This document shows, one piece after another, positions 6,258-51,867 of a stretch of DNA of 57,327 nt (its first letter is position 1; each line of letters begins with the position of its first letter). A program made the translations under genes and the position numbers. The notes below the pieces were generated by a model. That model was given only the letters and a program-made list of their open reading frames with translations, was not told where the DNA came from and searched no databases. Where the stretch lies: IMG/VR virus record IMGVR_UViG_3300027612_000001, positions 1 to 57,327 of that record; one strand, 5' to 3'. This DNA comes from a virus (Duplodnaviria > Caudoviricetes).

Positions 6258-6649
6258 TACCATCTAGCCTTTCTTGGTCTGTTGTCGACGTGGACGAACG
6301 TCTTGTAGCTCGTCCCTATCCCCATGAAACCAACCTCTTCGGCCGCCTCTACAATTGTCTGCTTTGATACGAACAACGGTATATCGATGGCAGTGCTTGG
6401 GTCGTCCTTAGTACAGCGATGCTGAGACCTTGGAGCGCCGCCGACGCGAGCATTGTGAAGCGGACAGCGACAAGCTGAGTTAGGCGAGAACGGCTTGCCT
6501 ATCAGCTTGCGCATTTCCTGAAGTTTCCACAGAGCGTCTTCTTCCAAATGGAAGAGTGGTTCTTCGTCTTGGGAGAAAGAGCAAGAGCCGTCACAGCCCT
6601 TGCATCTCAGCTCGGCAAACGTGAAGTTCGGGGTTGCCCACTTGCTCAT
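6257..6649 (-). CDS. Peptidase M15A endolysin
   Basis: NFTFAELRC, SACRCPLHN..VGGAPRSQH, AIDI, GIG, FVHVD. Confidence 0.9.
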   Translation of the reverse strand: MSKWATPNFTFAELRCKGCDGSCSFSQDEEPLFHLEEDALWKLQEMRKLIGKPFSPNSACRCPLHNARVGGAPRSQHRCTKDDPSTAIDIPLFVSKQTIVEAAEEVGFMGIGTSYKTFVHVDNRPRKARW

Positions 6650-18048: not shown

Positions 18049-18113
18049 TATGCTCTCCAGTTACGCATTGGTGACTGGATTCAGCGTATAAAGACGCGAG
18101 TTTTATGTCGTCC

Positions 18114-27646: not shown

Positions 27647-29589
27647 TAACCTGTCCTCACTGTCACCGCAAAACCGATGATTTTTAGAAGTCCCTTGCCT
27701 CGTGTGGTGAATCTGAATTGAACACCACGATAGCGATGCTCAAACTTCCTTTCATATTGTCTTGATAGCGGAACATCAGGGAAGTTGTCGTCCGCCGCAT
27801 CATCTTCGATCGTGATCTGCATGGCTGACAGATATCTGCCTCGCTCATCAAATGCTTCGATCTGTAGCTCACCCTTACCAGTTGCCTGAAGGATGAAGCT
27901 GTAACTTTCTTTTATGTCGTTGATTGCGCCCTGCCAGAGTATTGGTGTTGTTACGACCATCTCTGGTGAGAACTCGACTATGTCTTCGATTCGCTTACGC
28001 TCCCAGACTCCGCCCGGAGTGCCAAGAAGCGTGTTCGGTCCGAGCTTCGCTCCGCAACGAGCATTAAGGAAGTCTCCTGAAGACCACTTGGATTCTCCGC
28101 CCTGTACTGGTGACAGCGAGAGAGTTAGTCTTTTTGTGATTAAGTCGGATATCGGGAAGAAGACGTGATACTGCCCTTCGTCTTGATCGTAAAACGCACT
28201 GATTTCCTCTAGGTTATCCACCTGCTTCACTAGATCTCTGTAGATTAGATCGATCTTGTTCGACATCGGGATCGTGTAGATTGTTACCCCGTTTGTTTCG
28301 CTTCGTCTGAGTGAGTGGATTCCATCTCTCGAACAGAAGAGAAGATCTGCGCCAGCCTGCGTAATCGTGTTGTGGCTGATGCACCCGACCTTGATGTTTG
28401 CTTTGTCGTCAATCTGCCATTGGGTGTAGTTGGGTGAGAGTTGATAGACCAGAGTCTGGTCGTTTGTGAAAACCGCAAGGCGGCTGTTTTCAAATACTCC
28501 AAGTCCTGTGATCTCATCGGCAGTTCCTATGATGTTGCCAACGTCAATATCAGCGGCTTTCGTTACCTGAGTCGCTGTCGGATCTTCGTCTTCGGTAAAG
28601 ATTGTTTCCTTATCAACTCGACTGAAGTCAATGATTGTCCGCTTACCCGGCTGTCCAGCTACAGCTAGTCGGCGCTGAATCGACACGATGTAAGCTGGTC
28701 TCTGGTCGGAGCCTGATTCGATCTCTTCCCACTTGAGGCCATCGTATTGGTACATGGGGAAATCGCGAGAGGCGAACACAACCTTATTGTTAAAGATGGT
28801 TGATGTGGCGACAGCGTTACGAGGGTAAACTTCCTTTACGATGTGAGCGCCGTCACTTGCCTGAATATCTGTGCGAACGACGAATATGTAAGCAACATTG
28901 TCATCTTGGGTATTCTGCTGGAACCACTCATAGAACCATTCAAAGTCCTCTAGTTCGGACTCGCCATGGGTTACCGTTATTCTGTTAAATGTGTTGTCCG
29001 CTGACACCCTGACTACTTCTTCGCTTTCCTCTGTATCAGGATCAACGACAGTCTCGAAATAGGATGCTGGTTCGTACCCTCTTGGGAATGCTACCGTCAG
29101 CGAATAACTTGCCTCGCCTACCGTTTCTGTTGACCAGTTGAAATCTGGGTACTTTGGCTCGCTTGCTGTCTCTTCCCACGTCACGTCGAAGTAAACGTAG
29201 TTACCGAAAGTCTGCGCTCCATTACTTGGGATCTCAATAAGGTCATCTGCGTCTTCGTTGAACTCAGCAAGTATTAGTTGTTGTGGGTTCTTAATGTCGC
29301 GCTCAGATCTAAGTGTTAGTCCGCCGCCATCTTTTTGAACCCACACAGCCAGATCTCGGCCGAAGAAGTTGACGTGAGTTACGACCTTGTTGCCATCAGT
29401 TCTTTGTACTGCGCCCGGATCACGAACAAGAATGCCTCGCCAATCAGCAAAGCCGTTCGAGATATCCATAAGGTGCTGTTTCTGCCCAGTATCTAGTGCG
29501 CCGATATCACGCGACGCATCAATACCTTGAAAGTCTTCGTATGGGTATACCTTGATACTTACGCCAGATGGCGCATACGTCGTAGACAT
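27646..29589 (-). CDS. Tail tubular protein B / nozzle-like beta-propeller
   Basis: Synteny after the adaptor; GCISHNTI, LLFCSRDGIHSL. Confidence 0.65.
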   Translation of the reverse strand: MSTTYAPSGVSIKVYPYEDFQGIDASRDIGALDTGQKQHLMDISNGFADWRGILVRDPGAVQRTDGNKVVTHVNFFGRDLAVWVQKDGGGLTLRSERDIKNPQQLILAEFNEDADDLIEIPSNGAQTFGNYVYFDVTWEETASEPKYPDFNWSTETVGEASYSLTVAFPRGYEPASYFETVVDPDTEESEEVVRVSADNTFNRITVTHGESELEDFEWFYEWFQQNTQDDNVAYIFVVRTDIQASDGAHIVKEVYPRNAVATSTIFNNKVVFASRDFPMYQYDGLKWEEIESGSDQRPAYIVSIQRRLAVAGQPGKRTIIDFSRVDKETIFTEDEDPTATQVTKAADIDVGNIIGTADEITGLGVFENSRLAVFTNDQTLVYQLSPNYTQWQIDDKANIKVGCISHNTITQAGADLLFCSRDGIHSLRRSETNGVTIYTIPMSNKIDLIYRDLVKQVDNLEEISAFYDQDEGQYHVFFPISDLITKRLTLSLSPVQGGESKWSSGDFLNARCGAKLGPNTLLGTPGGVWERKRIEDIVEFSPEMVVTTPILWQGAINDIKESYSFILQATGKGELQIEAFDERGRYLSAMQITIEDDAADDNFPDVPLSRQYERKFEHRYRGVQFRFTTRGKGLLKIIGFAVTVRTG

Positions 29590-30297
29590 TTAGTACCTCG
29601 AGGTGTCGTATGCTTGTGTTCCAGAAGGTTTCTGCGACTTATCCCAAGGAGACATCTCGATCTTTCCTGAGCCGAACTTCCGGTAGTAAAGAATCCGATT
29701 CATCATCTTGAAGTACATTGGGCCGTAGGCTTCGATCTTGTTTGACTGCTGTTGCACTGAGTAGTGGTACAAAAGGCCAGCAACCATGATGTTATCTGGG
29801 ATGTCTCTGGTTTCGCTTGGGTGTGTGTAGTAGTCGATCTCAGGGTTATCCCAGTACGGATGAGAGCGAAGGTCTTCAAGGATAAGGTTTGCAAATTCAA
29901 CAAACATCATCATGACTTCGCCATCTACCGTGCCCGGATGCATGTCGCCATAACGTCTTAACGTCTGGAAGACCAAAGCCTCTAGGTTTGAGTGAGGCGA
30001 ATTGAGATGAGGGTTGTTTGAAGAAAAGCGATTACGCCCTTCCTGATTTAGCGTCTCATCTCTGTGCGTAGACTCAATCTCGTTGGCAGTATTTGCATTG
30101 ACTGGTCCACGGAGGTCTTTTGCTCCGGGTGAATTAGTTCGACCCTTTACGTCTTGGTGAGACGGGAGATCATTAGGAGGAGCTTCTCCCGCTATCGAGT
30201 CGTATGTGCGAGGAATCTCCGCGTTCGAGGAATCCTGAGATCCTGTGTACGGGTCATTCGCGTCGCCTGTAACGCCTGATGCATATTGAGAAGCCAT
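29590..30297 (-). CDS. Tail tubular protein A / head-tail adaptor-like
   Basis: ANLILEDLRSHPYW...MVAGLLYHY; lies between capsid and nozzle. Confidence 0.55.
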   Translation of the reverse strand: MASQYASGVTGDANDPYTGSQDSSNAEIPRTYDSIAGEAPPNDLPSHQDVKGRTNSPGAKDLRGPVNANTANEIESTHRDETLNQEGRNRFSSNNPHLNSPHSNLEALVFQTLRRYGDMHPGTVDGEVMMMFVEFANLILEDLRSHPYWDNPEIDYYTHPSETRDIPDNIMVAGLLYHYSVQQQSNKIEAYGPMYFKMMNRILYYRKFGSGKIEMSPWDKSQKPSGTQAYDTSRY

Positions 30298-30306
30298 AGA
30301 TTACTC

Positions 30307-30588
30307 CTAGTCTGCTTTTACGATTCGCTTTTTGACGACGAACTCGTGAAGGTCGAAAGCGTCAACTAGATCAGTAGGTACTGACCAGATTAGATGCTCC
30401 TTCTCTTTGTCCCAGTAAGGCGTGATCTTTTGGTTGCGAACACGAATATCGAAAGGCTGAAGTTCTTCGTTTGCCGAAACGTACAAAACTTTAGATGGTT
30501 TCGCTGGAGCGGCTTTTTTAGCTACTGACTTAGTCGCGGCAAGTTTGACTTTCGCTGAAGCCTCTTGACGTTCTTCGTTACGATCCAT
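30307..30588 (-). CDS. Hypothetical protein
   Basis: Start at MDRNEE after GGAG, downstream of the terminator. Confidence 0.6.
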   Translation of the reverse strand: MDRNEERQEASAKVKLAATKSVAKKAAPAKPSKVLYVSANEELQPFDIRVRNQKITPYWDKEKEHLIWSVPTDLVDAFDLHEFVVKKRIVKAD

Positions 30589-30601
30589 TTTAGGTCTCCA
30601 T

Positions 30602-30630
30602 AAAAAACTAAGGCGGGGTTTCCCCCGCCT
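30602..30630 (-). terminator. Rho-independent terminator after the major capsid gene
   Basis: Minus strand AGGCGGGG-GAAA-CCCCGCCT followed by TAGTTTTTT. Confidence 0.85.
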
Positions 30631-30667
30631 CAATTTAGTCATACATCTGAACTAAGAGTCGTCCCTA

Positions 30668-31849
30668 TTAAGAGACAGCGCCCCAGTTCTTGATGCGGTG
30701 GTGTACCTTAGACTGAGTCATTTCCAGACCGCACTCACACATGTACATGTGCTTGACACCGTCGAAGTCTGGAGTCTGGATGTCGCGTACCAACTGAACG
30801 TCGCGGCCCTGCATGTAGCGGTACTTAACTTCGTTCATGTCGAGGATGACCATTTCCTTGTCCATGCCCGGAACCTGACGGAACATTGGGTGCATGTATA
30901 CAAGCAAGTCACCTGCGTAAGTTGTGTAGCGGCTCAACGATACGCCATAAGCGTTATCGATCTGAGTTGGTTGCCAACGGTTCTTACCGATTTCCATGAG
31001 GTTCGAGATAACTCGAGCACCACAGAAAGCAACTTTTTCTGGTGAGCCATACGCGAAGATGTCTTCGATAAGAAGACGGTCAAACTCTTTCTCAGTGATT
31101 GTGTTTGCAGTGTCAAAACCTGACGCCGCGTCAGACACGTTAGTGATCTGAGTAGTCAATCCACCTGTGAAACGAGTTGGCTGTGCTGTGTTGCCGTTCT
31201 TCTCGTGACGAACACCGAAGAACATTGCACGCTCAATGTCAGCCATGTGTAGCTTGAGAGCCTTAGTCAACTGCTCCTGCTCCTTATCACCAGTACGGAG
31301 ATAAGTGTTCTGGAGTGTTCCGCTCACCTGCACCGCAGTCTTGAAGATCTGGGTGAAGTTGAAGTCGGTTGTTGGGTCGAAGCTAATAGCTGTAGGTGAG
31401 TTACCACCTTCTGAGTCAGCAAAACCAGCAATGATCAAGTCGTCGTTGTCGCCGATCGTGTAGCCAGTGCCACCGATGTTACGCTCAACAGTCAACGTGT
31501 TTGTGCCAGTGTTTGCATCCGCAGATGCACGCATGATTTCGCCAGTCGCTACGTTCTGAAGAACAGTACCCGCAACAACGAATGCTTCGTCGTTTGAGTT
31601 GTCTACAACGATAGTGCCTGTAGAAGTATCAGCAACAGCGCCGTTTACCTTCAGCTTACGATCTGGAAGCTCATCACGGAAGTGGTTGAACTTTGGATCG
31701 TCTGTAGCTTCAGAGCCAGCCATTGAAAGAAGTGCCTGTAATGGTGCAGTACCATTAGGCTCCAAGAGAGTGAATAACTCTCGGTAGTTGGTGGGACGGA
31801 AATCCGTAGTGAACTGCCCTGTCCCACGCAAACCAGTAATTGCGGTCAT
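30668..31849 (-). CDS. Major capsid protein (DUF5309/SU10-like)
   Basis: TAPLQALLS, NFTQIFKTAVQVSGT, DIERAMFFG, TGGL, ECGLE; strong RBS. Confidence 0.9.
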   Translation of the reverse strand: MTAITGLRGTGQFTTDFRPTNYRELFTLLEPNGTAPLQALLSMAGSEATDDPKFNHFRDELPDRKLKVNGAVADTSTGTIVVDNSNDEAFVVAGTVLQNVATGEIMRASADANTGTNTLTVERNIGGTGYTIGDNDDLIIAGFADSEGGNSPTAISFDPTTDFNFTQIFKTAVQVSGTLQNTYLRTGDKEQEQLTKALKLHMADIERAMFFGVRHEKNGNTAQPTRFTGGLTTQITNVSDAASGFDTANTITEKEFDRLLIEDIFAYGSPEKVAFCGARVISNLMEIGKNRWQPTQIDNAYGVSLSRYTTYAGDLLVYMHPMFRQVPGMDKEMVILDMNEVKYRYMQGRDVQLVRDIQTPDFDGVKHMYMCECGLEMTQSKVHHRIKNWGAVS

Positions 31850-32039
31850 GATATCTCTCCTATGACGCAGGTTTGTTTCGTGGTTTTAGGTGGTCACAGC
31901 TTTTTGTTCTGGCGACTCGATTCGCATATCAGATAGCTGGTTCCCGAGACACACAACTGTGGAGCCGTAGCGCCTGTGTATTCTCATGAAGGTAGTGTGC
32001 AAAGACGTAGAGGGACTTGTCGTCCCTCCTTGTCAATTT

Positions 32040-33080
32040 TTATGCAAGTCCACGCTTACGCATTGCCTGCTGAGCAACGGAATTCATGAATTGCTCGTCT
32101 GGGTTACCGGCTGGAGCGGCTCCCGATGTTGGAGTAGATGGGCCTGCGCCAGTGAATGCTTGGCGGCGCTCATTGAGTGCGCGGAGCCTTTCCATCTCTG
32201 GCGTGTTACGGTTTGCGGAGAAGTCCTGCATGATGCGACGAGTAAGGTCTCGATCAACAAAATCCTCTACCGTGTAGCCACGGCCATACGCGAAGTCGAA
32301 GAAGTCATCTTCTGCGTCATCTGGCAAGTTGAACTCAGCTTGCGCAGAGTTTAGGTTGTTTGCCGCCTGCATACGGTAAGCGTTGCTTACGTCTTGCTGT
32401 GCTTGATTAACTGCGACCTGTGCGTCTCCGCTAACTCCTTGGGCTTGAGCCAAGATTCCAGTCATCATCTGCTTCATCTGGGAGTTCTCCATTTGAAGCT
32501 GATTGATTAAGTGCATTCCTTGGCGATACATAGGAGGCAATGTGACTGCGTTCTCACGCTCCCAACGTGCAATCTCTTCGTCCACGTTAGTCTGCTGACC
32601 ATCTGGTCGATCAGGAGTTGGATCTTGCTGGTTACCCATTTGAGGGTTAGATGTGTATGCCTGAATTGCGCTAGCTAAAAATTGAGCTACGTCTTCGCCA
32701 TTCACTTCCTGCCCAGTCTGGCGAGCATTAGCGACCATCTGGTTGATCAGGTTAATAGCAGGTTCGATCGGCTTGATCTCGTTAGCGTGACGGTAGTTCA
32801 TGTCACGGTAGCGTTCCATCGTTGATTTGATCTGCGATGTAGACAATGTGCGCCTATCGCCATTGCCGAAGTCGACTTCCACGAACGCATCTTCTCTCGA
32901 CATATCACCTTCCGTTTCCGGTGCGATTGCTTCTTGAGCTTGCTCGTCTAATGATGGAGGCGTCTCCTGACTGGCAGGATCCTGTTGAGGTTGTTGTGGT
33001 TGACCCGGTGTAGGTCCGAGCTTTTCTTGGGACGCGGCTGAAATTAACGCCTGATCCATTTCTTCGTTTGTGCGAGACAT
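32040..33080 (-). CDS. Capsid scaffolding protein
   Basis: Acidic/Q-rich helical protein directly upstream of the MCP. Confidence 0.7.
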   Translation of the reverse strand: MSRTNEEMDQALISAASQEKLGPTPGQPQQPQQDPASQETPPSLDEQAQEAIAPETEGDMSREDAFVEVDFGNGDRRTLSTSQIKSTMERYRDMNYRHANEIKPIEPAINLINQMVANARQTGQEVNGEDVAQFLASAIQAYTSNPQMGNQQDPTPDRPDGQQTNVDEEIARWERENAVTLPPMYRQGMHLINQLQMENSQMKQMMTGILAQAQGVSGDAQVAVNQAQQDVSNAYRMQAANNLNSAQAEFNLPDDAEDDFFDFAYGRGYTVEDFVDRDLTRRIMQDFSANRNTPEMERLRALNERRQAFTGAGPSTPTSGAAPAGNPDEQFMNSVAQQAMRKRGLA

Positions 33081-33136
33081 ATGTTTCCCCTATGCCAGCC
33101 GTAGCGGGCGGTAAAAATGGCGGAGCCGTAGCACCG

Positions 33137-33397
33137 CTAAGAGTTAAACTCCTTGTCTACCATGAGGGATATCTCGTTTTGAGCTTTCATCACGAGTTGC
33201 TCTGGGAGATCAAGGAACTTCTTCGCGGCGTAAAGAGCGCCACGTCTAAAATGCAGTTCTTCGAGAGTTAATGGTTTGTTGTCTGCGAGTTGGTAAGCAG
33301 ACATCAGGATGGCATCTTCCATTTCCTGCTTGAGTATTGTCCAAGCGTTAGACGACTTGAACCTTTGAAGCTCTTCAATGCGTTGTTGAGGAGACAT
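33137..33397 (-). CDS. Hypothetical helical protein
   Basis: ORF with RBS in the head operon. Confidence 0.6.
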   Translation of the reverse strand: MSPQQRIEELQRFKSSNAWTILKQEMEDAILMSAYQLADNKPLTLEELHFRRGALYAAKKFLDLPEQLVMKAQNEISLMVDKEFNS

Positions 33398-33399
33398 GA

Positions 33400-33660
33400 T
33401 TACCCCTTATGAAATGTAACGTAAGTTCCTACAGCGATAGTTCCGAGAACAAGCATGATGAACCAGCGGACAACTGTCCTGACCGCTGTCCCCTTGATGT
33501 CCCTCCAGCCATCGATGAGTTCACGAAGATCGCGGATATCTTTCCCGGCGTCTTCGTCGTGGAGGCCGAGTTGAAGCAAGGCTTTCTTAGCTCCGGCCTC
33601 GGCCGCCTTATTGAGAAGTAGGTCTAGTTGCTCTTTCGACAGCTTTACTTCTTCGCCCAT
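33400..33660 (-). CDS. Small membrane protein (DUF6127-like/holin-like)
   Basis: AAEAGAKKAL..LGL.DE.A.KDIRDLR.L.D.W plus a C-terminal TM. Confidence 0.65.
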   Translation of the reverse strand: MGEEVKLSKEQLDLLLNKAAEAGAKKALLQLGLHDEDAGKDIRDLRELIDGWRDIKGTAVRTVVRWFIMLVLGTIAVGTYVTFHKG

Positions 33661-33669
33661 CTCTGGCTC

Positions 33670-36261
33670 CTACGCGAATCTGATTGGCATTGGGACTGTG
33701 ATGTACTCGTCGTCATCTTCTGGCAACTGAGATCCACCTGCGTAACCGAACTGGAACGCCGAGCCGTCTGTACACTTCATTATGCAACCGCCTTCGGAGG
33801 TGTTCCCGATGACATGGAAGTCTTCGATTACTTTGCCGTGAATAGGTATTTCGCGGAACCAGTAGTTTGTAGCGTCTGTTGTTCCTGTGCCGAGGCCGCC
33901 GTTACCGCCGTAGCCTACAGACCAGAGCTTGCCGTCTGAGTCGAGGACGAATGTCCGGTTGTAAGAGCCTGTTCCACCCGTGCGGATCTTTACTGCATTG
34001 GTGAAAGGTTCGTTAGTGTATGTACCTTCGCCAATGCCCTGCGTGTAGATTGCTTTCTGGGCTTCTACGAATGTCGCTCTGTTCGTTGTGGACTCGTCCA
34101 CGCCGAGAGATCCGTAGTTGTTTGAGCCACATGACCAAACAGAGCCGTCAGTCTTGATCGCGTGAGATGTCTCGTAGTCACCGGCTTGGCCTCTAGCGAA
34201 CACTTCTGCTACGCCGGACAAGCAACTTGCTGGAACGTATGTTGCCGCGTTGGTTGTTGTTCCGTTGCGACCAAGGTTTCCATATCCGTTGTAGCCCCAT
34301 GAGTACAGTTCGCCATTGGTGTCGATAGCAAATGACGATTCACCTCCGACATGGATCTTAGCGATGGTAATACTGTTATCGATGAAGTACTGGATCTTGG
34401 TTAGTGTTGCAAAGACGCCAGTGCCACTTGTCCCATGCCCTAGCTGACCGTACTCGTTATGACCCCAAGCGTAAACTTCGCCATCGACTGTGAGAGCTAG
34501 GATGTGAGACTGGTTATTTCGACCCACCTTAACATCCACAATTTCCTCGGTGATGCCAGTGAGCTCTTGGAAGTACCCGGTGTTTGTGAGACCTGCGAGC
34601 TGTCCGTGGCCATTGTACCCTGAGATGTGTAAGTCACCATCAGTATCGAGCATCACGGTTATCTTGTTGTCAGAGTAATTTCCTACCCCTTGAATAATCT
34701 TCTTGATCCGCTTTCCGTAGATCGAGTTGTTTGAGTCGCCAGAGATGTAGCGAGGTACTTTGATGGTGCCGGTTGAGGTGTTCCCGATCCCGGCTTCGCC
34801 GTCAGTCTGGTAGCCCCAAGTCCAAACTTCATCGTTCTCGTCGATTGCAAAGACAAGCTCGCTGTAGTCGTGTGTGTATGACTTAAACTTTGGCGAGTTC
34901 TTGTACATCGGAGTCTGGATTGGGTAGGACCGATCGTAAACCTCATTGCCCCGGCCAGACATGTAGTTACCGCCGACTCCCCACCAGCGGAGTGTTCCGT
35001 CTTCCATCATGACTGTGCCGCGACGGTAGAGGTTGGTGTTCTCTGTATCAGGGAACTTCCATGCTCGGTATGAGCTGGATACTTGGTGAGGCTTCCAAGA
35101 AGGCATCCCTTCGGCGTTTACAGTAAGGACTGTGTTTGGTGCGCCAACAGGAAGTGGCTTTAGATCGCTTCCATCAAAGTAAATAAGGTCGCCAACATTT
35201 GTTGCTACTGTGTTGATCCCTTGGCCAAATACCGCCCAGTTAGAAGACTGAGTGATCGTTGTTGTGCGGCCGCCAGTGATGTTGATCTCTGATCCGTAGA
35301 TAGACAGGGATCCGTACTTAATTGTCGAAGGTGAATCCAATGGTACGAGGTAACTGGTCACCCCTTGCTCTGTGCCTGCGGTGTGCGTGAATCCATCCGA
35401 GATCCCATAAGGAGTGTCGTCATCTGGATCAGCCACTCCATTCTCAAGCATGATCGGACTGTAGAACTTGATCTGCGTATTCTGTCCTGCGATTGTGTTT
35501 GATGAGTCAGTCTGATCAAAGATGTATTCGTAGCCGCGCTGTAGGTAAAGCGTGTCCTGACGAACGCCATCGATAACAAAGACGTATTCGTCTGAAGCGT
35601 TCTGATCAATGGTTACCGCGTAGTTGACGATGTACTCGTCTGGGTTGCCTGCTCTGACTGTGCCGCCAAAACTTTCGGTGTAGGTGTTTGCATTCGCCAG
35701 TACGTCGAAGTTGCGCAAGACGTAGATTGCTGAGTCCGAGAATCCGTAAGGGACTGTGATCTTTGCGTAAGCGCCCGCTGAGCCGGGGTTGATTACTGAG
35801 TACTCGACATTAACGTCATCAAGCGCTCCGCCATTAGCGACTGTGTCACTGTAGAAGCCGATGTACTTGTAGTTGAAGCCATCGATCATTGAGGAGTCGC
35901 TGAGGTCGAACCAATAGGTGTAACCCCATTGGACATCAAGTCTCTCACTGTTTGAGATGTAGTCTGTTTGTGAGCCAGAAAAAGCTGGAGTGCCGTTAGT
36001 TACTGACACATCTTGCTTCTTAATGACCAGCTTGTCATTAGCGATGCTTACGACGAAGCCAAAGTTCTGAACAGGAGGCATTGGCAACTGGTTTTCAGCA
36101 GTGGTGTTCTGCGAAATAGGAGCTTCGCCTGACGTTCCATCTGTTGTGCATACATAAGAAGTGCCGTCGTAAGTCGCGACGTCTTGCTCACTGTATGTCT
36201 CTGAGCCGCTGTATGCGCCTTTGTATGTGAAGGCTACTGTGCCCAATGATATCGTTGCCAT
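33670..36261 (-). CDS. Tail fibre / receptor-binding protein with RCC1 repeats
   Basis: Repeated WG.N.YGQLG motifs; N-terminal KGAYSG.ETY...D.ATYDG. Confidence 0.85.
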   Translation of the reverse strand: MATISLGTVAFTYKGAYSGSETYSEQDVATYDGTSYVCTTDGTSGEAPISQNTTAENQLPMPPVQNFGFVVSIANDKLVIKKQDVSVTNGTPAFSGSQTDYISNSERLDVQWGYTYWFDLSDSSMIDGFNYKYIGFYSDTVANGGALDDVNVEYSVINPGSAGAYAKITVPYGFSDSAIYVLRNFDVLANANTYTESFGGTVRAGNPDEYIVNYAVTIDQNASDEYVFVIDGVRQDTLYLQRGYEYIFDQTDSSNTIAGQNTQIKFYSPIMLENGVADPDDDTPYGISDGFTHTAGTEQGVTSYLVPLDSPSTIKYGSLSIYGSEINITGGRTTTITQSSNWAVFGQGINTVATNVGDLIYFDGSDLKPLPVGAPNTVLTVNAEGMPSWKPHQVSSSYRAWKFPDTENTNLYRRGTVMMEDGTLRWWGVGGNYMSGRGNEVYDRSYPIQTPMYKNSPKFKSYTHDYSELVFAIDENDEVWTWGYQTDGEAGIGNTSTGTIKVPRYISGDSNNSIYGKRIKKIIQGVGNYSDNKITVMLDTDGDLHISGYNGHGQLAGLTNTGYFQELTGITEEIVDVKVGRNNQSHILALTVDGEVYAWGHNEYGQLGHGTSGTGVFATLTKIQYFIDNSITIAKIHVGGESSFAIDTNGELYSWGYNGYGNLGRNGTTTNAATYVPASCLSGVAEVFARGQAGDYETSHAIKTDGSVWSCGSNNYGSLGVDESTTNRATFVEAQKAIYTQGIGEGTYTNEPFTNAVKIRTGGTGSYNRTFVLDSDGKLWSVGYGGNGGLGTGTTDATNYWFREIPIHGKVIEDFHVIGNTSEGGCIMKCTDGSAFQFGYAGGSQLPEDDDEYITVPMPIRFA

Positions 36262-36271
36262 TTATAGCTCC

Positions 36272-38032
36272 TTAAAGCCTAACTCTTTGTGGCGTATAAC
36301 CGTCTTGATTGTCGTCTTCCCACCCGAGTCGCCCGTGGCTACCCGCTCCTGCTGACCACAACTCGCCCCTGTCTGTTAGATAATACGTCGTCAAATCCGT
36401 TGTTGCGTCCTGCACATAACCTGCCGTGTAGTAATCAACAACTGCATCTGGGACTCTTGCTACTCGACGGAGCGTCTGAGTGTTTGAGACCCAATCATCT
36501 ACGCCTCTAGAGCCGAGGTTGTCGCCAAGGTTGTTTGCCCATCCGTAACCGGGGTTGCCGGACGTGTTGTTTCCGCTTGACTGCACATAACCGCTTGCGG
36601 TTAAGCCCATGCTCTGAACGCCGTAGCGAGACGTGATATGAGTGAGCTTTACGATGTCTGGAGCCCAGTGGTAGTTTCTCGTCCAGTTGTTTGATGACGC
36701 GATATCTACTCCATCGGCATCAAATCCATGAAGACCGTACTGGTCTTGTCCGATAGTCCAGATTTCGCCGTTCTTCTTGCGGGCGATAATGTGTTCGTAT
36801 CCGCCGTGGCCTGTGTAGGCTTCAGCAATGTCGTCAATACGGTTTTCTGGTAGCCATTCGTTGATGAAAGTTCCAGCGGGGTTGAAGTCCACAATCTGCG
36901 ACCTTCTGTTAGAAACCTGCCACGAGTACATATTTCCTTCTTCGGAAACGACTAGGCCGGTTCTGTGGTACTGCGTACCAGCCTGAGAATGGTCGTCTGA
37001 CTCGTGCCATACGACTTGCTTTGGCGTGAAGCCCGGATCGACTGACGGAGCCCATGCTTCATGGATGGAGAGGTTGTTTGGTGGGTTGACTGACCATGTT
37101 GATAGAGATGAGCTTGTTTCACCGATACCGTAGAGCACGTTATCTTCGCCGAGCATCGCCGTTGCCGCGTAGTACATCTGTCCGTTGAAGATCTTCTTCA
37201 TCGGAACCATCTCTGATCGCTTAGACAAGCGAGGAGTGGTTACATTGCCAGTGCCTTGCGACCCGTCGCCGATGCCGAAGTTGTAGTTGTCGTTGCGGCC
37301 ACAGCAGTAAACCTTGCCGTCGTCTGTTAAGAACATCGTGCTCTTGTAGCCGTTGTAAGAGCAGACTGGATAGCAATCTACAACGACGGCATTCTCTGGA
37401 AGATCGCCTTTGCCGTTGATCAGAGTTGGACGCTGTACGTCGGTTGTCGTTCCATTCCCGACGTTACCGTAGTTGTTGTGGCCCCATCCGTAAATTCTTC
37501 CGTCTGCGTCAAGAGCGAAGCAGAACTCTCGAGCACCGAACAGCTTTACGATCGGGGCGGTATCCGAGTAGAACTGAAGTTGCACTGGGTCTGAGCGGCC
37601 AATATCACCTTGGTTACCTGCGCCTAAAGACTTGTTGAGATTACGACCCCAAGCCATAACTGTGCCGTCAGTCATGATGACATGCATGTTGTGGTGGTGG
37701 CCTGTCGAGTAGCCTGTTCCTGCGTAGTACTCAGGAAGACGTAGGACGCCGTTAGTTCTCGATATGTCGTCGTACTGCCAGATTGGACGGCCTACAGAGC
37801 TCACTGTGAACTTCTGATTTACTGCGCCTGACAGGTAGTAATCCATGTTGTGTATCAGGTCGCCCTTGGTGGTCGAACCTACTTGGCCTGACGCCATGGT
37901 GCGCCAAGTTGAGCCGTCCCAGAACTTTACGAAGCCGTCCTTAGATACAGTGTCGCCTACGACGTAAAGGGTTCCTTCGGCGTAGTTACCTTTCCAGCGG
38001 AAACCAATTTTTGAAGCGTCCAACATGCTCAT
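36272..38032 (-). CDS. Second RCC1-repeat tail fibre protein
   Basis: WGRN..LG, WGHNNYGNVG, GRNDNYNFG; N-terminal FRWKGNY. Confidence 0.85.
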   Translation of the reverse strand: MSMLDASKIGFRWKGNYAEGTLYVVGDTVSKDGFVKFWDGSTWRTMASGQVGSTTKGDLIHNMDYYLSGAVNQKFTVSSVGRPIWQYDDISRTNGVLRLPEYYAGTGYSTGHHHNMHVIMTDGTVMAWGRNLNKSLGAGNQGDIGRSDPVQLQFYSDTAPIVKLFGAREFCFALDADGRIYGWGHNNYGNVGNGTTTDVQRPTLINGKGDLPENAVVVDCYPVCSYNGYKSTMFLTDDGKVYCCGRNDNYNFGIGDGSQGTGNVTTPRLSKRSEMVPMKKIFNGQMYYAATAMLGEDNVLYGIGETSSSLSTWSVNPPNNLSIHEAWAPSVDPGFTPKQVVWHESDDHSQAGTQYHRTGLVVSEEGNMYSWQVSNRRSQIVDFNPAGTFINEWLPENRIDDIAEAYTGHGGYEHIIARKKNGEIWTIGQDQYGLHGFDADGVDIASSNNWTRNYHWAPDIVKLTHITSRYGVQSMGLTASGYVQSSGNNTSGNPGYGWANNLGDNLGSRGVDDWVSNTQTLRRVARVPDAVVDYYTAGYVQDATTDLTTYYLTDRGELWSAGAGSHGRLGWEDDNQDGYTPQRVRL

Positions 38033-38730
38033 AGAGTTGCTACCAATTTGTTGTTGACGATGGAGTATGTGACGTTGAGGTCAGTCAAGACGTATGCGTC
38101 GTAGTCTTCTGGCGTGATGTTCACGTCGTCGTCTGTCGTGTACTTATCAAGGTTGAGTGTCTGAGCGACTGGGTCAAACTTGATGCCTTGGAACATGGGC
38201 TTTGCGGCGGAGTCTGTCAGCGTGTAGCCGGATTCGTCTTCTTTGACGACTAGGAATCTCCCGCCGTTACCCGAGAGCTCATCGTCGCTTGCTGGGATAC
38301 GGCCTGCTGTCCCAAAAATGATCGTGAAGGTCTTTGTTGGGTCTGGATCTGCGGTCACTGCCGTATGGCCCGCTGTGACCATCATCAACTGTTCTTGGTG
38401 GTAGATGAGGTCGTGAATTCCGTACTCCGTGCCTACAGCGTATGTTCCGCGAGGCTTGAAGAATCCACCGTAAGGAACGTCCACCCAGTTCTGCTCAGGG
38501 TCAAGATACAGACCGCGACGAACCTGAAGCGCGTAAGTTGTTGGATCTACACGGAATTCAAAGATGTTTTCTCTGACGTTACCTGAGTTTTCATCGAAGA
38601 TGTCGTTAAGCAAGTCGGCAAGTGTACGATCGCCAAACTCAGCAGATTCTAAGTAAGTGTCGAGCAGGTGAGTTCCTGTTCGAGCAGAACGGAAGTCAAT
38701 CTGTTCAAGTTTGGGACGGGTTTCTGCCAT
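38029..38730 (-). CDS. Tail fibre attachment/adaptor protein
   Basis: PRGTYAVGTEY..HDLIY motif; N-terminus resembles that of 25811..27646 (AE.G..T...L...IFDE). Confidence 0.55.
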   Translation of the reverse strand: MAETRPKLEQIDFRSARTGTHLLDTYLESAEFGDRTLADLLNDIFDENSGNVRENIFEFRVDPTTYALQVRRGLYLDPEQNWVDVPYGGFFKPRGTYAVGTEYGIHDLIYHQEQLMMVTAGHTAVTADPDPTKTFTIIFGTAGRIPASDDELSGNGGRFLVVKEDESGYTLTDSAAKPMFQGIKFDPVAQTLNLDKYTTDDDVNITPEDYDAYVLTDLNVTYSIVNNKLVATL

Positions 38731-39002
38731 TACTCAATTCCATTCCGCTTTAGAAGCTGTATGACTTTTGCTCGGGTCAACGAGTAGTCCTCATTTACCT
38801 CGAACTTCTGTCGAAGGTAGCTAACTTCTGTGACTAGATCGTCCACCTTTGCCAGTATGGAAGTGACGTCTACTGGCTTCTCTTGCTTTGGGGCTGGGAT
38901 CGCGGCAATCGATTCTTGGATCAACGCCTTTACCCAAGCCTTTGTGTTTGGGTTTAGATCAACCAACTTCTCTAGCTGAGACGCTTTAGGTTGTGTTGCC
39001 AT
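38730..39002 (-). CDS. Hypothetical protein
   Basis: TAATG-coupled ORF. Confidence 0.55.
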   Translation of the reverse strand: MATQPKASQLEKLVDLNPNTKAWVKALIQESIAAIPAPKQEKPVDVTSILAKVDDLVTEVSYLRQKFEVNEDYSLTRAKVIQLLKRNGIE

Positions 39003-40885
39003 TACTCTCCCTGCCTCTTGAGGTTCCCTTTCTGAATTTCCTGCTCAAGCTGTTCTTGAGGCATGACTGAAGCGCCGCGCATCTTCTCCATCATTTCCAT
39101 CTGTTGTGATGGCGATGGGCCAGCGTCAGCTTCTTCTTTCGTGATCTTGAACTGTTCGAGGTCGCTGACACCCATCGAGCGAATAGCTTCCTCTGCAATC
39201 TTCCCGGCTTTGTATTCTTGGTTTAGTCCGGTCTGACCCATAACTTGCAGAATGTTCATCCAAGTCTCTGCGTTACGAGTCGGCTCGATGGGTAGCGTCC
39301 CGTCTACCACGAGGTAGTCGATGTCTCCCTGAATCATGCCGATATCGAAGTCCAAGTAATCGTCTTCAATCAGTGGCTTGAGTTGTCCGGGCGCATTGTT
39401 TGCGTTGATTCGGAGCGAGCCTTCGTACTCAAGCGCGTCTTGTAGGTTGGAGACCATCATGCGAACAAGCGGACGCACTGTTGTTGACGAGATAATTCTT
39501 GAGATGACGCCAAGGCGTTGAGAGCCTAACTGTGTAAGACGCTGGATCTCCGTCGCCGTTCGGATACCGTCAGACGTAGGCATGCCCTGCTGTGCATCTG
39601 ATGCGGCAGACACTCGTTGCTTGAGGTCTGACATCGCACCGATGTCCTGCCAATGGCCACGGGTTACGTCTGGGATCTCTGCGATAAACACGCCGTCACC
39701 GGGCTTTGTACCCGGCAGTGTTCTGACCAAGCCCCATGGGTTTCTGTCGATTAAGTCTGGGACGGAAACCGCTGTTGGGTCGACGAAGACTAAGTTGTTT
39801 AGCGCCGCTTGCACGTTGTCGATGCGTGAGCGTAGTAGCCACGTTGAGATTTCATGCAATGGCAACAGTAAGTCATACAGTGACTGCGCGTATGTCTTGT
39901 GCTTGTCGTGGTACAGGCCGCCGATTGTCACTGGGAACTGGCGGCCGTATGGGTTGAGCTGGAAGCGAATGATCGCGTACTCGTCTAGGACTGTTGCCAG
40001 AAGATAGACTTGGCCTAGCTCTGGGATTCCGATCTCGTAACCGTTGAGGCGGATCCATGCTTCGTCGACGATGCGTGATTGATCGAGCGAGAAATGGTAT
40101 CCGTTCTCTTGCGATGCTGGCTCTTCTGGGTTGATAGAGAGTCCGCGACCCTCCTCCTTAAACCAGCCGTGCGCATCCCATGCGTGATGGCGAACTTCCT
40201 TGCGACGTAGCCCCGGATATTTATTGAGCTTGGGGTACAACTCTGAACCAACAAGAGCGCTTGTCGACATGTGGTCTGTGAAGACGATGAATTGCATGCG
40301 ATCCCAGTCGCCCCACTGTACGCGAGGATCCGGGAAGCAACGACGTGGGTCGAAGTTCACGATGTCGTTCGTCTTGGTGACTGGATTCCATACGCACTTT
40401 GTCGGAGCGAATCCGTAGCGTATTGAGTCTAATAGCATTTGTGCGATGTTCGCCTCGCCTGCTGTCCGGCGCATGTGCTGATGTAGCAGGCGCTCTAGGA
40501 TCAGTGCTGACTTGCGGGACTTACGGTTAAGACCTTCCAACTGAAACATTGGGTTGCGGCCTGTGAGTGCCGACATAAGATAAGTAAGGACTGTGTCTGC
40601 GATTGCTCGAGTATCTGCGACGACAACTTTCTCGCGGAACTTCGTACTGTCGGCAGGAACCCATACGTCGTGAGCGCGATCTGCGTCCTGCCAATGCTTG
40701 TAGCGGCGGCTGATCTTATCGTGCGACATCTTAGTGATAGCACGGACGTAGTCGATCAGCTTGCGCTCTTGATCCTCTGACAACATGTCGGAGATATCTT
40801 GGTAGCTAAGCAACTGATCTTTGAGGTTACTCAGGTCAACAACTTGGTCGACGTGCTGAGAAAATGGTTCGGTCTTGTATCGCAT
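39002..40885 (-). CDS. Portal protein
   Basis: 627 aa after TerL; RTATEI, DSIRYG.A..K and FPDP motifs of podovirus/P22-like portals. Confidence 0.88.
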   Translation of the reverse strand: MRYKTEPFSQHVDQVVDLSNLKDQLLSYQDISDMLSEDQERKLIDYVRAITKMSHDKISRRYKHWQDADRAHDVWVPADSTKFREKVVVADTRAIADTVLTYLMSALTGRNPMFQLEGLNRKSRKSALILERLLHQHMRRTAGEANIAQMLLDSIRYGFAPTKCVWNPVTKTNDIVNFDPRRCFPDPRVQWGDWDRMQFIVFTDHMSTSALVGSELYPKLNKYPGLRRKEVRHHAWDAHGWFKEEGRGLSINPEEPASQENGYHFSLDQSRIVDEAWIRLNGYEIGIPELGQVYLLATVLDEYAIIRFQLNPYGRQFPVTIGGLYHDKHKTYAQSLYDLLLPLHEISTWLLRSRIDNVQAALNNLVFVDPTAVSVPDLIDRNPWGLVRTLPGTKPGDGVFIAEIPDVTRGHWQDIGAMSDLKQRVSAASDAQQGMPTSDGIRTATEIQRLTQLGSQRLGVISRIISSTTVRPLVRMMVSNLQDALEYEGSLRINANNAPGQLKPLIEDDYLDFDIGMIQGDIDYLVVDGTLPIEPTRNAETWMNILQVMGQTGLNQEYKAGKIAEEAIRSMGVSDLEQFKITKEEADAGPSPSQQMEMMEKMRGASVMPQEQLEQEIQKGNLKRQGE

Positions 40886-40921
40886 GTGCTACTAATACCT
40901 TCTAGCGTTTCGCTCGTCGTC

Positions 40922-42538
40922 CTAGAGTTCGCCCCAATTTTTGAACTCGGGGCCATTCTTGATCTCTTTAGACCACCAATCCCTTGAAGAGCTTGTCTTA
41001 AACTGGTTATGGAGCGATCCAGCCATGTCTAGCGGTGTTGTAAGCGCATCAGAGGCTTGTCCTCCCATCTTCGCAATGGCTTCCAGCCCCATAGTCATCG
41101 CGTCGATTTGGTCGTCATGTTTCCCGTTCGGGAAGGACTGAGCCTCAGTCATAAACTCATCGATCCAATCTGCACTATCTGGGACGAAAACTCGTCCCCC
41201 CTCTATCAACGGGGTGACTGCGTTAAGACGGCTGACCTTGTCTGTGGTGACACGAACTGGGATGACTGAGATGCCAGATTGATTCCTTAGCTCTTGGATA
41301 AGTGATTGTCCGCTCGCCTTGTCTTCGATGTAGAAGCCACGGAGACCTTGGCCACGCCAGCGAGTATTTAGCATCACTGCGGCACGCTTGAGCTCTGGGA
41401 AGTCGTAGCGGCCACGGATGACGTCTAGGAGAAAGATATCTCCTGCCCGGTCCATGCCGAGAACCATCATGACGGAGTAGTCGGCTGTCTCTGTTTTCTT
41501 GAAGGCTGTATCAGCGGCGATGATGACCGTACTGCACTCTGGCTTCTCTTTGTACTGACGCCACCAGCCTGACTTAATGAGGTTACCGCCTGCAATGAAC
41601 GGTGACTGTTGGTAGAGAGATGCGAACTCTCGAGGATCAAGGCGCTCTCTCTTTCGTAGCTCTTCAATCGGGAAGCGTGTTGGCCAGAGGGCTTCTTCTT
41701 TCTCCTCGAGGTAGGATCGCTTAGATGGACTAACCTTACTTAGTTCGCCTTGAGGTATGTACCTAGGGTCGTCTTCTGGCAATGAGGCGACGGATTTCTT
41801 GACTGAGCCAGCGACTTTTCGGATGGCTGGGAAATTGACGTGCTCCCATGCACCCTCTTTCCAGTCTTCCGTTTCCATGATTCGACCAGCGAGGTCGTCT
41901 GGATGCCATCGGGTAAGGATGACGATTTCGATAGCCGGAGCTCCATTTGGCTCTGGTTGCTTTCGCGTTGTTAAGGCGGAGACGTAGTAGCTCCACGTCT
42001 TGTTTCTTTGGGTGGCGCTGTCCGCCTCCTCTCGAGCCTTGACTGGGTCGTCCACCAAGAGAAGGGTCGCCGCGCGACCAGTCGTTGAACCCCCGAGGCC
42101 GGTTGCGTAATACCCGCCCCCGCTTGCGGTGCGCCAATCGTCTACCGCCCGACTTTCATCAGAGAGGATAAAATCTGGGAAAGCCTGCTGGATGATTGGC
42201 TCTCTGGCGTTATCTCGAGTTTGTCTTCCGAAAGTTTTGGCGAGGTCTTGGTTGTAACTGGTGGCGAGGACGTTTCGGTTTGGCCGCTTAGCGAGGTAGT
42301 AGACTGGGAATAAGGTTGAGGCCAGCCAAGACTTTCCATGACGAGGCGGCATTGTGATAAGTAAACGTCTTTTGCCAAGTGAGCCGCTTTCCAGCTTGTC
42401 GAGTACGTCGATAAGCTCAAGTTGAAAATCTGCGAGTTCAAACTCTGGAGATACTGCTTGTACAAATCCATGGAAGTTATCCTGTGCTTTCTGAATCGTG
42501 AGTAGGCGTTTCGCCGCTTGCTGTGGTGTTAGATTCAT
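40922..42538 (-). CDS. terL: Terminase large subunit
   Basis: ITMPPRHGKS Walker A, LLLVDDPVK, TRWHPDDL, IEDKASG, FPNGKHDDQIDAMT. Confidence 0.95.
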   Translation of the reverse strand: MNLTPQQAAKRLLTIQKAQDNFHGFVQAVSPEFELADFQLELIDVLDKLESGSLGKRRLLITMPPRHGKSWLASTLFPVYYLAKRPNRNVLATSYNQDLAKTFGRQTRDNAREPIIQQAFPDFILSDESRAVDDWRTASGGGYYATGLGGSTTGRAATLLLVDDPVKAREEADSATQRNKTWSYYVSALTTRKQPEPNGAPAIEIVILTRWHPDDLAGRIMETEDWKEGAWEHVNFPAIRKVAGSVKKSVASLPEDDPRYIPQGELSKVSPSKRSYLEEKEEALWPTRFPIEELRKRERLDPREFASLYQQSPFIAGGNLIKSGWWRQYKEKPECSTVIIAADTAFKKTETADYSVMMVLGMDRAGDIFLLDVIRGRYDFPELKRAAVMLNTRWRGQGLRGFYIEDKASGQSLIQELRNQSGISVIPVRVTTDKVSRLNAVTPLIEGGRVFVPDSADWIDEFMTEAQSFPNGKHDDQIDAMTMGLEAIAKMGGQASDALTTPLDMAGSLHNQFKTSSSRDWWSKEIKNGPEFKNWGEL

Positions 42539-42890
42539 TTGATACCTCTTCAAATTCCACGTCTTCCGCTTCGCTGGCTTCTTGCCCCTGCTTGGCGATT
42601 TCCATTAGTTCATCGACGGTCAGCTCGTGCACCTGCTTGTTTTCTACGCTGTGCTCGTTGAACGAGTGGTGCAGGTCGGGCATGACCTTGTTAAGCATTA
42701 CTGTGAATAAGCGAACTTGTTGGTTGTCCCACTTCTTTGAGCCAGCGAGAACTTCGCGCACATCTGGCAAGTTGCTACGCACGACATCCAGTACGCTTCG
42801 TCTGACCCTGTCGACCTGCATTGGTGTGACTGGAGGCAGGCCGCCAGTGCCACCCTTTGTTGGGTGAGGAGAGTTACGAACCTTTGGCAT
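42477..42890 (-). CDS. terS: Terminase small subunit
   Basis: LNKVMPDL motif, overlaps the terL start. Confidence 0.65.
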   Translation of the reverse strand: MPKVRNSPHPTKGGTGGLPPVTPMQVDRVRRSVLDVVRSNLPDVREVLAGSKKWDNQQVRLFTVMLNKVMPDLHHSFNEHSVENKQVHELTVDELMEIAKQGQEASEAEDVEFEEVSNESNTTASGETPTHDSESTG

Positions 42891-51414: not shown

Positions 51415-51867
51415 ATGGACAATGATAAAGATCGGATATCAGCGCTCGAGAGAGAGCTATCTGAGCTACGAGGCATGGTTAAAGCACTGATGGAGTTGTA
51501 CAGAGAGTCGTACAAGCCAACCACGGTGCAGACACCAACCCCCACCGAAACGAGGTCTCATGTAGACCTCACCCCATTCACGCCTAAGCAACATGCAGTA
51601 CTTCAATTGCTGTGCGATGGCAAATCAACAGCAGAGATGTCAGGGATTCTTTGCGTCACAGAGAGCACCATCAAGGTTCACTTGCGGTCCATCATGGACA
51701 AGCGAGAGGTCCGAACCAGAGCCCTGCTTGCGATCTGGTACTCGGAGGTCATGGCTAACGTCGACCCCGTTGAGTACGAGAAGCGAGCAGGCATTCCATT
51801 GGACTGGCATATACATCACGAAGAGTACCGTGAGATTACTGCAATGCTACAAGCGAAGGTAAGATGA
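51415..51867 (+). CDS. LuxR-family HTH transcriptional regulator
   Basis: FTPKQHAVLQLLCDGKSTAEMSGILCVTESTIKVHLRSIMDK. Confidence 0.88.
   Translation: MDNDKDRISALERELSELRGMVKALMELYRESYKPTTVQTPTPTETRSHVDLTPFTPKQHAVLQLLCDGKSTAEMSGILCVTESTIKVHLRSIMDKREVRTRALLAIWYSEVMANVDPVEYEKRAGIPLDWHIHHEEYREITAMLQAKVR

Follow-up and report, generated by a model that had tools for sequence, protein, structure and literature searches.

A conserved YNCG-capped hairpin in the scaffold and capsid leaders of CRP-810-type marine phages

The genome of a CRP-810-type marine phage, IMG/VR record IMGVR_UViG_3300027612_000001, carries three copies of a small hairpin (A, B and C) ahead of the genes for its scaffold-like protein and its major capsid protein (MCP). 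They had been noticed, and an RNA operator proposed, from the sequence of this genome (the original prediction), and comparison with relatives identifies them as one conserved, structured and strand-specific element that is restricted to these two leaders. The window, i.e. the whole stretch of DNA analysed, is a complete virus record; its 57,327 bp include direct terminal repeats, and its late genes are on the minus strand. The core common to the three hairpins is Y-GC-YNCG-GC-Y, in which two G-C pairs under the loop are followed by a pyrimidine-pyrimidine mismatch and a lower stem of changing sequence. The scaffold-like gene is named by its position between the portal and accessory genes and the MCP gene; its product has no family match in Pfam or PHROG.

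The three hairpins in the window

The features concerned are, in the direction of transcription:

33137-33397, minus strand: gene for a conserved helical protein of 86 aa, the stop codon of which meets hairpin A
33120-33137, minus strand: hairpin A, GCGG-U-GC-UACG-GC-U-CCGC (4-bp lower stem, U-U mismatch, GC/GC, UACG loop)
33094-33109, minus strand: hairpin B, GCC-C-GC-UACG-GC-U-GGC (3-bp lower stem, C-U mismatch, GC/GC, UACG loop)
33086-33090, minus strand: Shine-Dalgarno sequence of the scaffold gene, GGGGA
32040-33080, minus strand: scaffold-like gene (346 aa, acidic, Q-rich; ATG at 33078-33080)
31961-31974, minus strand: core of hairpin C, GG-C-GC-UACG-GC-U-CC (C-U mismatch, GC/GC, UACG loop)
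31950-31980, minus strand: extended form of hairpin C, with an outer helix, a 5-nt internal loop on the 3' side and a 2-bp helix
30668-31849, minus strand: MCP gene (393 aa, SU10-type; PF17236 at 1.7e-42, phrog_1328)

On the minus strand all three hairpins read as originally written down, with core coordinates correct to within 2 nt, and their placement was also right: B adjoins the scaffold ribosome-binding site, ending 3 nt 5' of GGGGA and 13 nt 5' of the scaffold ATG (33080), and C lies inside the 190-nt spacer between the scaffold and MCP genes (31850-32039). Hairpin A overlaps the upstream 86-aa gene by one base, its first G closing that gene's stop codon. The 9-mer GCTACGGCT occurs in four exact copies in the window, all on the minus strand, namely in A, B and C and at 7533-7541 inside a giant open reading frame (ORF) of 3800 aa. 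Allowing at most one mismatch, there are 28 matches against 9.5 +/- 3.2 in shuffled sequence, none of 100 shuffles reaching 28, and a reversed-pattern control gave 0 forward and 2 reverse matches.

The proposed folds of A, B and C were returned exactly by ViennaRNA, with energies of -10.8 kcal/mol for A (z-score -2.4), -8.3 kcal/mol for B (z-score -1.6) and -8.8 kcal/mol for the extended form of C (z-score -0.6). Since these z-scores are only weakly unusual, the support for the hairpins is comparative and comes from conservation and covariation in relatives.

Conservation in relatives

A capsid-protein scan of IMG/VR yielded 109 confirmed relatives, of which 80 loci with MCP identities of 56-97% were kept; scaffold homologues were found in 78 loci. 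Where the contig reaches more than 200 nt upstream of the capsid gene, as it does in 76 loci, the core Y-GC-NNNN-GC-Y is always present at site C, 95-170 nt ahead of the ATG; the tandem of A and B precedes the scaffold gene in 55 of the 62 loci with more than 1700 nt upstream. Conservation in relatives, the absence of which had been named as grounds for giving up the original prediction, is therefore evident at all three sites. The seven loci without the tandem are the seven lowest in capsid identity (60-64%) and form the most distant clade, which includes the nearest named phage, Roseobacter phage CRP-810 (61% MCP identity). Six of these seven keep a single hairpin beside the scaffold ribosome-binding site, that of CRP-810 being CC-C-GC-UAAG-GC-C-GG; at the scaffold leader of the seventh, L052, no hairpin was seen. 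The leaders of the family are otherwise unalignable while the hairpin core stays fixed.

A pattern scan of IMG/VR for the tandem core matched at least 116 stretches, 80 loci of which were read. A scaffold homologue lies just downstream in 35 of them, and two more are truncated contigs with the same layout. The other 43, judged by eye, are coding repeats (Ala-Thr-Ala or Gly-Tyr-Gly codon runs) without hairpin or Shine-Dalgarno sequence.

Covariation and structure

The sites were collected into a gapless alignment of 119 distinct 30-mers (37 A, 36 B and 46 C), from which one locus's false A/B pattern matches in coding sequence had been dropped. The first pair below the mismatch is formed in 115 of the 119 variants (AU 39, GC 30, CG 29, UA 13), the second in 113 and the third in 94, with all four Watson-Crick types in quantity, whereas pairing at the next two positions is about that expected by chance. 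The covariation score was 0.53 compared to 0.117 in shuffles, none of 500 shuffles reached 0.53, and slid registers gave at most 0.18. The original prediction, which was to be abandoned if no covariation appeared, thus gains support in its central structural claim, a constant tip and constant closing pairs on outer stems that differ and still pair. Each of the three sites is supported on its own: the three lower pairs are formed in 37/37, 36/37 and 36/37 variants at A (11 distinct lower stems), in 36/36, 36/36 and 35/36 at B (11 distinct lower stems) and in 42/46, 41/46 and 23/46 at C (27 distinct lower stems). G-U wobbles occupy eight cells on the sense strand and would be A-C mismatches on the antisense strand, so that they fit the sense strand only.

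The mismatch had been described as a constant pyrimidine-U pair. Its constancy is borne out, since it is pyrimidine-pyrimidine in all variants, but the family-wide form is Y-Y and includes C-C: the counts are C-U 21, C-C 12, U-C 2 and U-U 2 at A, C-U 35 and C-C 1 at B, and C-U 20, C-C 25 and U-C 1 at C. The loop is UACG in 94 variants, including all three copies in the window, UUCG in 9, UGCG in 1, CACG in 10, UAAG in 3 and UUAG in 2, i.e. of the UNCG type in 104 of 119. A C-G closing pair is found in 119/119 variants, as imposed by the collecting pattern. Site B is the most constrained copy, with a C-U mismatch in 35 and a UACG loop in 33 of its 36 variants.

Site C differs from the other two in being the tip of a longer stem, with 10.9 enclosing pairs and -12.2 kcal/mol compared to 6.9 pairs and -7.6 kcal/mol when downstream flanks were swapped between sequences. 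The stems of A and B show no extension beyond the same control (8.3 vs. 7.9 and 8.1 vs. 7.7 enclosing pairs). When RNAalifold was applied to 31 MCP leaders, the whole-leader consensus recovered only hairpin C, with 4 pairs.

Placement and specificity

Contact of hairpin B with the Shine-Dalgarno sequence, noted originally for this genome, is a family feature: among its 36 distinct variants, 31 have 0-2 nt between the end of the stem and the Shine-Dalgarno-like core, and in 34 the distance from the stem to the ATG is 11-14 nt. The lower stem of A begins between 2 nt inside and 4 nt past the upstream stop codon in 25 of 37 variants. The two cores start 21-28 nt apart, and the linker between them is A/C-rich, G-poor and unstructured.

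A covariance model built from the 119-sequence alignment was searched in the window and in relatives. In the window it matched B (25.9 bits, the best), C (24.1), a copy in the giant ORF at 7523-7552 (18.1) and, partially, A (10.9), which scores low because the flank columns, shaped by the contexts of B and C, penalise it. Five full-length relatives have strong matches in the head-gene leaders and one copy inside the scaffold ORF of genome G001; at strong scores the motif is absent from the rest of the window and of these five genomes, save for the two copies in ORFs. No match at E <=0.1 was found in the distant SU10-type phages Kuura, VS-ABTNL-3 and Mel-JY34, which have ~31% capsid identity and short scaffold-MCP spacers.

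The flanks of the giant-ORF copy (7523-7552, minus strand) pair only across a larger internal loop. In five lineages (L007, L008, L012, L045 and L046) a hairpin GGG-C-GC-UCCG-GC-Y-CCC, with the same architecture and another UNCG loop, lies ~75-100 nt inside the scaffold ORF, where it encodes Gly-Ala-Pro-Ala-Pro; it could be a further site or a coding coincidence.

Presence in RNA and context of the capsid leader

The hairpins of the scaffold leader are present in RNA, as judged from metatranscriptome contigs assembled from four runs (X1-X4). One contig, at depth 6.6, joins the 86-aa gene to the scaffold gene across A and B, its neighbours having depths of 7.0 and 6.5. Contig depth in X1 is uneven (78.9 for the capsid contig, 6.5 and 2.9 for scaffold contigs and 16 for the downstream contig), which argues for RNA and not carried-over DNA. 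Capsid contigs end at 31965 in X1, inside hairpin C, at 31949 in X2, at 31947 in X3, just 3' of the extended stem of C, and at 31913 in X4; this hints weakly at hairpin C or its vicinity as the start of the abundant capsid message. Positions 31966-32052 are uncovered in all four runs, which by itself is no evidence.

Two further kinds of signal lie near the capsid gene, one of them recurring elsewhere in the window:

32019-32025, minus strand: GGACGAC box that follows the scaffold stop codon, a candidate for a -35-like promoter element or for one arm of a terminator
30658-30664, 40916-40922, 18107-18113 and 6401-6407, minus strand: further GGACGAC copies just after late-gene stop codons
30602-30629, minus strand: canonical terminator GGCGGGG-GAAA-CCCCGCC plus U-run (hairpin 30612-30629), ~40 nt after the capsid stop codon

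Contigs break at the terminator, across which depth in X1 falls from 78.9 to 16. The 13 copies of GGACGAC in the window are without exception on the minus strand, five directly following a stop codon, and across 81 loci the box was found 188 times in sense and 4 times in antisense orientation. Of 54 distinct capsid leaders, 45 carry it 160-190 nt ahead of the ATG and one more at about -230, and it is often one arm of a terminator-like hairpin. A weak tTaaa follows it at a distance of 18 nt, and in the relatives read the outer helix of C starts 5-9 nt past this -10-like hexamer. GGACGAC is a candidate late-promoter box of the family, or a terminator or processing signal, and it is a reasonable but unproven reading that the unusual -35-like box forms part of a late promoter here and that C is the 5'-terminal stem-loop behind it. 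A terminator and promoter scan called none of the three hairpins and found no sigma-70 promoter in 29000-39000.

Further conserved elements were seen in the capsid leader. A mid-leader GC-UGNA-GC-like hairpin (31850-31950, minus strand; 31 MCP leaders) again takes the form Y-GC-NNNN-GC-Y in some subgroups, and an ACG-N-AAC block stands 10-20 nt before the MCP Shine-Dalgarno sequence; ACGNAAC is not enriched genome-wide (28 copies vs. 29 expected).

Comparison with known RNA motifs

The proposed comparison with Rfam gave no match: Rfam 15 returned 0 matches at gathering thresholds for the whole window and the loci of 20 relatives, and at E up to 10 on 31800-33200 it returned three chance-level matches, none on the hairpins. 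Ocean-VII gave a weak partial match (11.1 vs. 53.5 bits) on the GGACGAC hairpin, not on A, B or C. A literature search by motif strings brought up only primers and unrelated sequences among the matches listed.

In loop and C-G closing pair the element belongs to the C(UNCG)G class of extra-stable tetraloops, hairpins of extreme stability that act as autonomous nuclei of folding and were first observed in T4 mRNA (PMC4371310). The T4 hairpins (Tuerk et al. 1988, as described in PMC4371310) likewise occur in phage messages, but they have free stems and are regarded as autonomous elements of stability or nucleation, whereas the second pair and the Y-Y mismatch are fixed here and the sites are orthologous across a family. 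Site B also fits the general description of a translational operator, being a conserved structured site that abuts a ribosome-binding site. Such small operators beside ribosome-binding sites are established in phages (PMC3014915); one is the hairpin of T4/RB69 gp43, the DNA polymerase gene, which a protein reads to repress translation (PMC3014915). The present element resembles it in its small size (16-18 nt), its conserved top and its place ahead of a phage start codon (PMC3014915), and differs from it in having three copies before two genes and another loop and sequence, where the gp43 operator is a single copy on one gene read by that gene's own product.

Other classes fit less well. A T7-type RNase III site has ~20 bp of mostly double-stranded RNA, whereas A and B have only 5-6 pairs and no extension beyond the control. 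ANTAR targets are two tandem hexaloop hairpins, with A at position 1 and G at position 4, that overlap a terminator; the loops here are tetraloops, and Pfam found no ANTAR domain among the 63 ORFs. The lambda nut site combines a 5-bp stem and a GNRA-like pentaloop with boxA, whereas A and B have YNCG-type tetraloops and no conserved linear partner beside them in the alignment flanks; no boxA-like partner was seen in these flanks, and no model search was aimed at boxA.

In logic alone the arrangement is analogous to two well-known systems with unrelated sequences, readers and organisms. The thrS operator of E. coli has two like hairpins near the ribosome-binding site that are read by one dimeric protein, and the eukaryotic iron-responsive element (IRE), bound by iron regulatory proteins (IRP), is a single type of hairpin whose tip and helix irregularity are fixed and which places several messages under coordinate control. 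Stem-loops at the 5' end of the ompA type and the intercistronic hairpins of the Rhodobacter puf operon, by contrast, act as stabilisers and need no specific sequence. Hairpin C resembles them in capping a stem at a likely 5' end, and A and B in flanking a short single-stranded intercistronic linker; unlike them, the present element has a fixed sequence and mismatch.

Scaffold genes of tailed phages have been linked to control before. Wyckoff and Casjens reportedly described post-transcriptional autoregulation of the P22 scaffolding protein in 1985. To our knowledge, no RNA operator has been defined for this control, and we know of no tailed phage other than P22 in which the balance of scaffold and capsid is known genetically. 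The likeness is one of a controlled scaffold gene in a tailed phage; the scaffold proteins have no homology.

Possible function of the element

Our favoured explanation, to which we assign a probability of about 45%, is that the hairpin is a recognition module for a trans-acting reader and that it controls scaffold translation and marks the capsid message. The hairpin would be a cis-acting RNA module on late head-gene messages, recognised by sequence and shape by a reader, most likely a protein, that probably reads the Y-Y mismatch, held two pairs under a cYNCGg tip that folds autonomously. Site B would act as a translational operator, the bound reader competing with the 30S subunit at the scaffold Shine-Dalgarno sequence, and site A would be an auxiliary or cooperative site across the A/C-rich linker. 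Site C would be the same tag on the 5' stem-loop of a separately transcribed and much more abundant capsid message, which it would place under the same reader via stability or translation. We infer the existence of the reader, its identity as a phage-encoded protein or an alphaproteobacterial host factor, and the sign of its control.

Thermodynamics by itself accounts less well than sequence-specific recognition for a constant tip and mismatch on covarying stems. Had stability been all that was selected, the mismatch would have been closed, yet it has been kept Y-Y, and because neither this invariant, destabilising feature nor the restriction to the genes of two bulk head proteins is explained by stability, a reader is favoured. 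The original prediction was of a protein-bound operator that sets the scaffold:capsid ratio; the conserved element abutting the ribosome-binding site stood up to comparison, while a protein binder and a role in that ratio are things that we still infer.

Several observations weigh against a reader. Site C is ~110-125 nt from the MCP start codon, which makes simple occlusion of the ribosome-binding site impossible there and means that one simple mechanism cannot cover all three sites. The single-sequence folding z-scores are weak (-0.6 to -2.4). The core columns were collected by pattern; their invariance counts all the same because no positional homologue was missed at C (76/76), seven of 62 loci being without the tandem. 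According to a review, the cUUCGg loop itself is bound by no proteins (PMC4371310); recognition would then have to pass through the mismatch and the adjoining stem pairs, and the loop would probably be a rigid cap. The Pfam and PHROG matches in the genome include no RNA-binding candidate for the reader, and the 86-aa neighbour of the scaffold gene, modelled as four helices (predicted local distance difference test score, pLDDT, 79.6), has no significant fold match in the PDB (best E ~0.8, to ribosomal protein chains and designed bundles) and fell in the Atlas only among viral hypothetical clusters. On the side of the RNA, contigs cannot show the true 5' ends of molecules, and the stable terminator hairpin behind the MCP gene likewise coincides with contig breaks, which makes a technical cause possible for the break at C.

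As the named hosts of the family are all Alphaproteobacteria, a host factor is as possible a reader as a phage protein. It is rather doubtful that one phage-encoded head-assembly protein (scaffold, capsid or small neighbour) reads the hairpin on both messages. If it did, the system would provide assembly-coupled feedback on the two bulk head proteins, and the dosage of scaffold and capsid in a tailed dsDNA phage would for the first time have a defined RNA operator. In any case the element is a sharply defined motif of 16-18 nt with clear mutational predictions, and it is directly testable because it is conserved in a globally distributed marine phage family with a cultured member, CRP-810 (CHUG roseobacter). 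As an uncatalogued, strongly covarying cis-regulatory RNA motif, it joins the small set known from marine phages.

The strongest competitor, on balance unlikely though it deserves a serious hearing, is that the hairpins are reader-independent structural punctuation, i.e. fast-folding and extra-stable stabiliser or insulator caps. C would protect the 5' end of the capsid message; with the linker cleaved, the scaffold message would be guarded by B at its 5' end and the upstream message by A at its 3' end; and the hairpins would insulate the Shine-Dalgarno sequence from upstream pairing. This agrees with the autonomous folding and extreme stability of cUNCGg hairpins (PMC4371310), with the unstructured, G-poor linker between A and B, and with a capsid leader in which C caps a long stem, 5-9 nt past a -10-like hexamer in the relatives read, and the abundant MCP RNA has its start near C. 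What is known of the stability requirements of cUNCGg could account for the fixed GC/GC tip (PMC4371310), and the hosts named for the family in the main text of the CRP-810 paper are Alphaproteobacteria (PMC11288001). Stability does not explain, however, why an invariant GC/GC tip is combined with a destabilising Y-Y mismatch at three sites family-wide, nor why the element is restricted to two leaders. RNA depth is equal on both sides of A and B in the one run that covers them, and loops outside the UNCG class (UAAG and UUAG, 5/119 variants) are tolerated.

It is less probable again that the hairpin is the site of a hairpin-specific endoribonuclease of host or phage, a Cas6-type or processing enzyme that cuts the polycistronic late RNA. 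A conserved shape and sequence would suit the site of an enzyme as well as that of a binder, the tandem has a short single-stranded linker, and MCP contigs end inside or just 3' of C (31965, 31949 and 31947). The RNA contig through A and B is nevertheless uncut, contig ends are not molecule ends, and no such nuclease was recognised among the phage genes with Pfam and PHROG.

A co-transcriptional signal of the nut type, by which the nascent hairpins would load an antitermination or processivity factor past the scaffold and MCP terminators, appears improbable to a marked degree. Lambda nutL is promoter-proximal and nutR intercistronic, and the positions of the hairpins resemble both; terminator-like hairpins do follow the scaffold gene (in relatives, with a U-run) and the MCP gene (30612-30629 with a U-run). 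Against this stand the tetraloop in place of a GNRA-like pentaloop, the lack of any boxA-like partner seen, the strict contact of B with the Shine-Dalgarno sequence, which would have no role, and the fall in depth from 78.9 to 16 after the MCP gene, which implies limited read-through.

We give very little credence to an element acting at the level of DNA, whether a single-stranded hairpin or cruciform used as promoter, origin or recombination site, or a small mobile palindrome. The inverted repeat is of course present in the DNA too, hairpin promoters are used by the N4 virion RNA polymerase, and the genome has an unexplained 3800-aa ORF in its virion region. Yet every copy lies on the sense strand of the gene that it precedes, the G-U wobbles fit that strand only, the fixed contacts with a Shine-Dalgarno sequence and a stop codon point to mRNA, and no RNA polymerase was found in the genome with Pfam and PHROG; the positions, orthologous and unscattered, indicate that the element is not mobile.

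Intrinsic (Rho-independent) terminators or attenuators and a chance repeat are already contradicted by the observations: the CAUUUUU after hairpin A is confined to this genome and its closest relatives and is not a family feature, the terminator scan called none of the three hairpins, a contig crosses A and B at unchanged depth, and chance is excluded by the 9-mer shuffles, the 76/76 loci with site C and the covariation.

Genome context and further observations

The remaining late genes and the integrase are placed as follows:

40922-42553, minus strand: terminase
39002-40885, minus strand: portal protein, SU10-type
36272-38032, minus strand: RCC1-repeat protein
33670-36261, minus strand: RCC1-repeat protein
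33400-33660, minus strand: 86-aa gene, DUF6127, with a hydrophobic C-terminus
downstream of the capsid gene, minus strand: tail and virion genes, including the 3800-aa ORF
51869-52951: integrase

The CRP-810-type family is given as 251 uncultured genomes with a G+C content of 35-66% and with SAR11, Roseobacter and Sphingomonadaceae, all Alphaproteobacteria, as hosts in the main text of its description (PMC11288001). That main text, supplements aside, has no mention of a promoter, hairpin, terminator, scaffold or stem-loop (PMC11288001). No DNA nearly identical to the window was found in the phage collection. A scan of a genome collection for prophage hosts found capsids 70-79% identical on three contigs of metagenome-assembled genomes (MAGs; L089-L091), labelled Legionellales, Phycisphaerae and Neomarinimicrobiota, and one more match with a Saprospiraceae label that was weak, partial and 38% identical. 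The MAG contigs with a close capsid relative are probably viral contigs swept into bins, not host evidence.

At the thresholds used, neither Pfam nor PHROG gave a match for the 3800-aa ORF of the virion module (6646-18048, minus strand). A 150-aa helix-turn-helix protein of the GerE/LuxR type (51415-51867, plus strand) adjoins the integrase gene; such a protein is reported, in the main text of the family description, from CRP-810 and 107 uncultivated virus genomes (UViGs) (PMC11288001). This protein might be the factor that reads the GGACGAC box. The two RCC1-repeat proteins, both large and of the beta-propeller kind, have their genes between the portal region and the scaffold gene.

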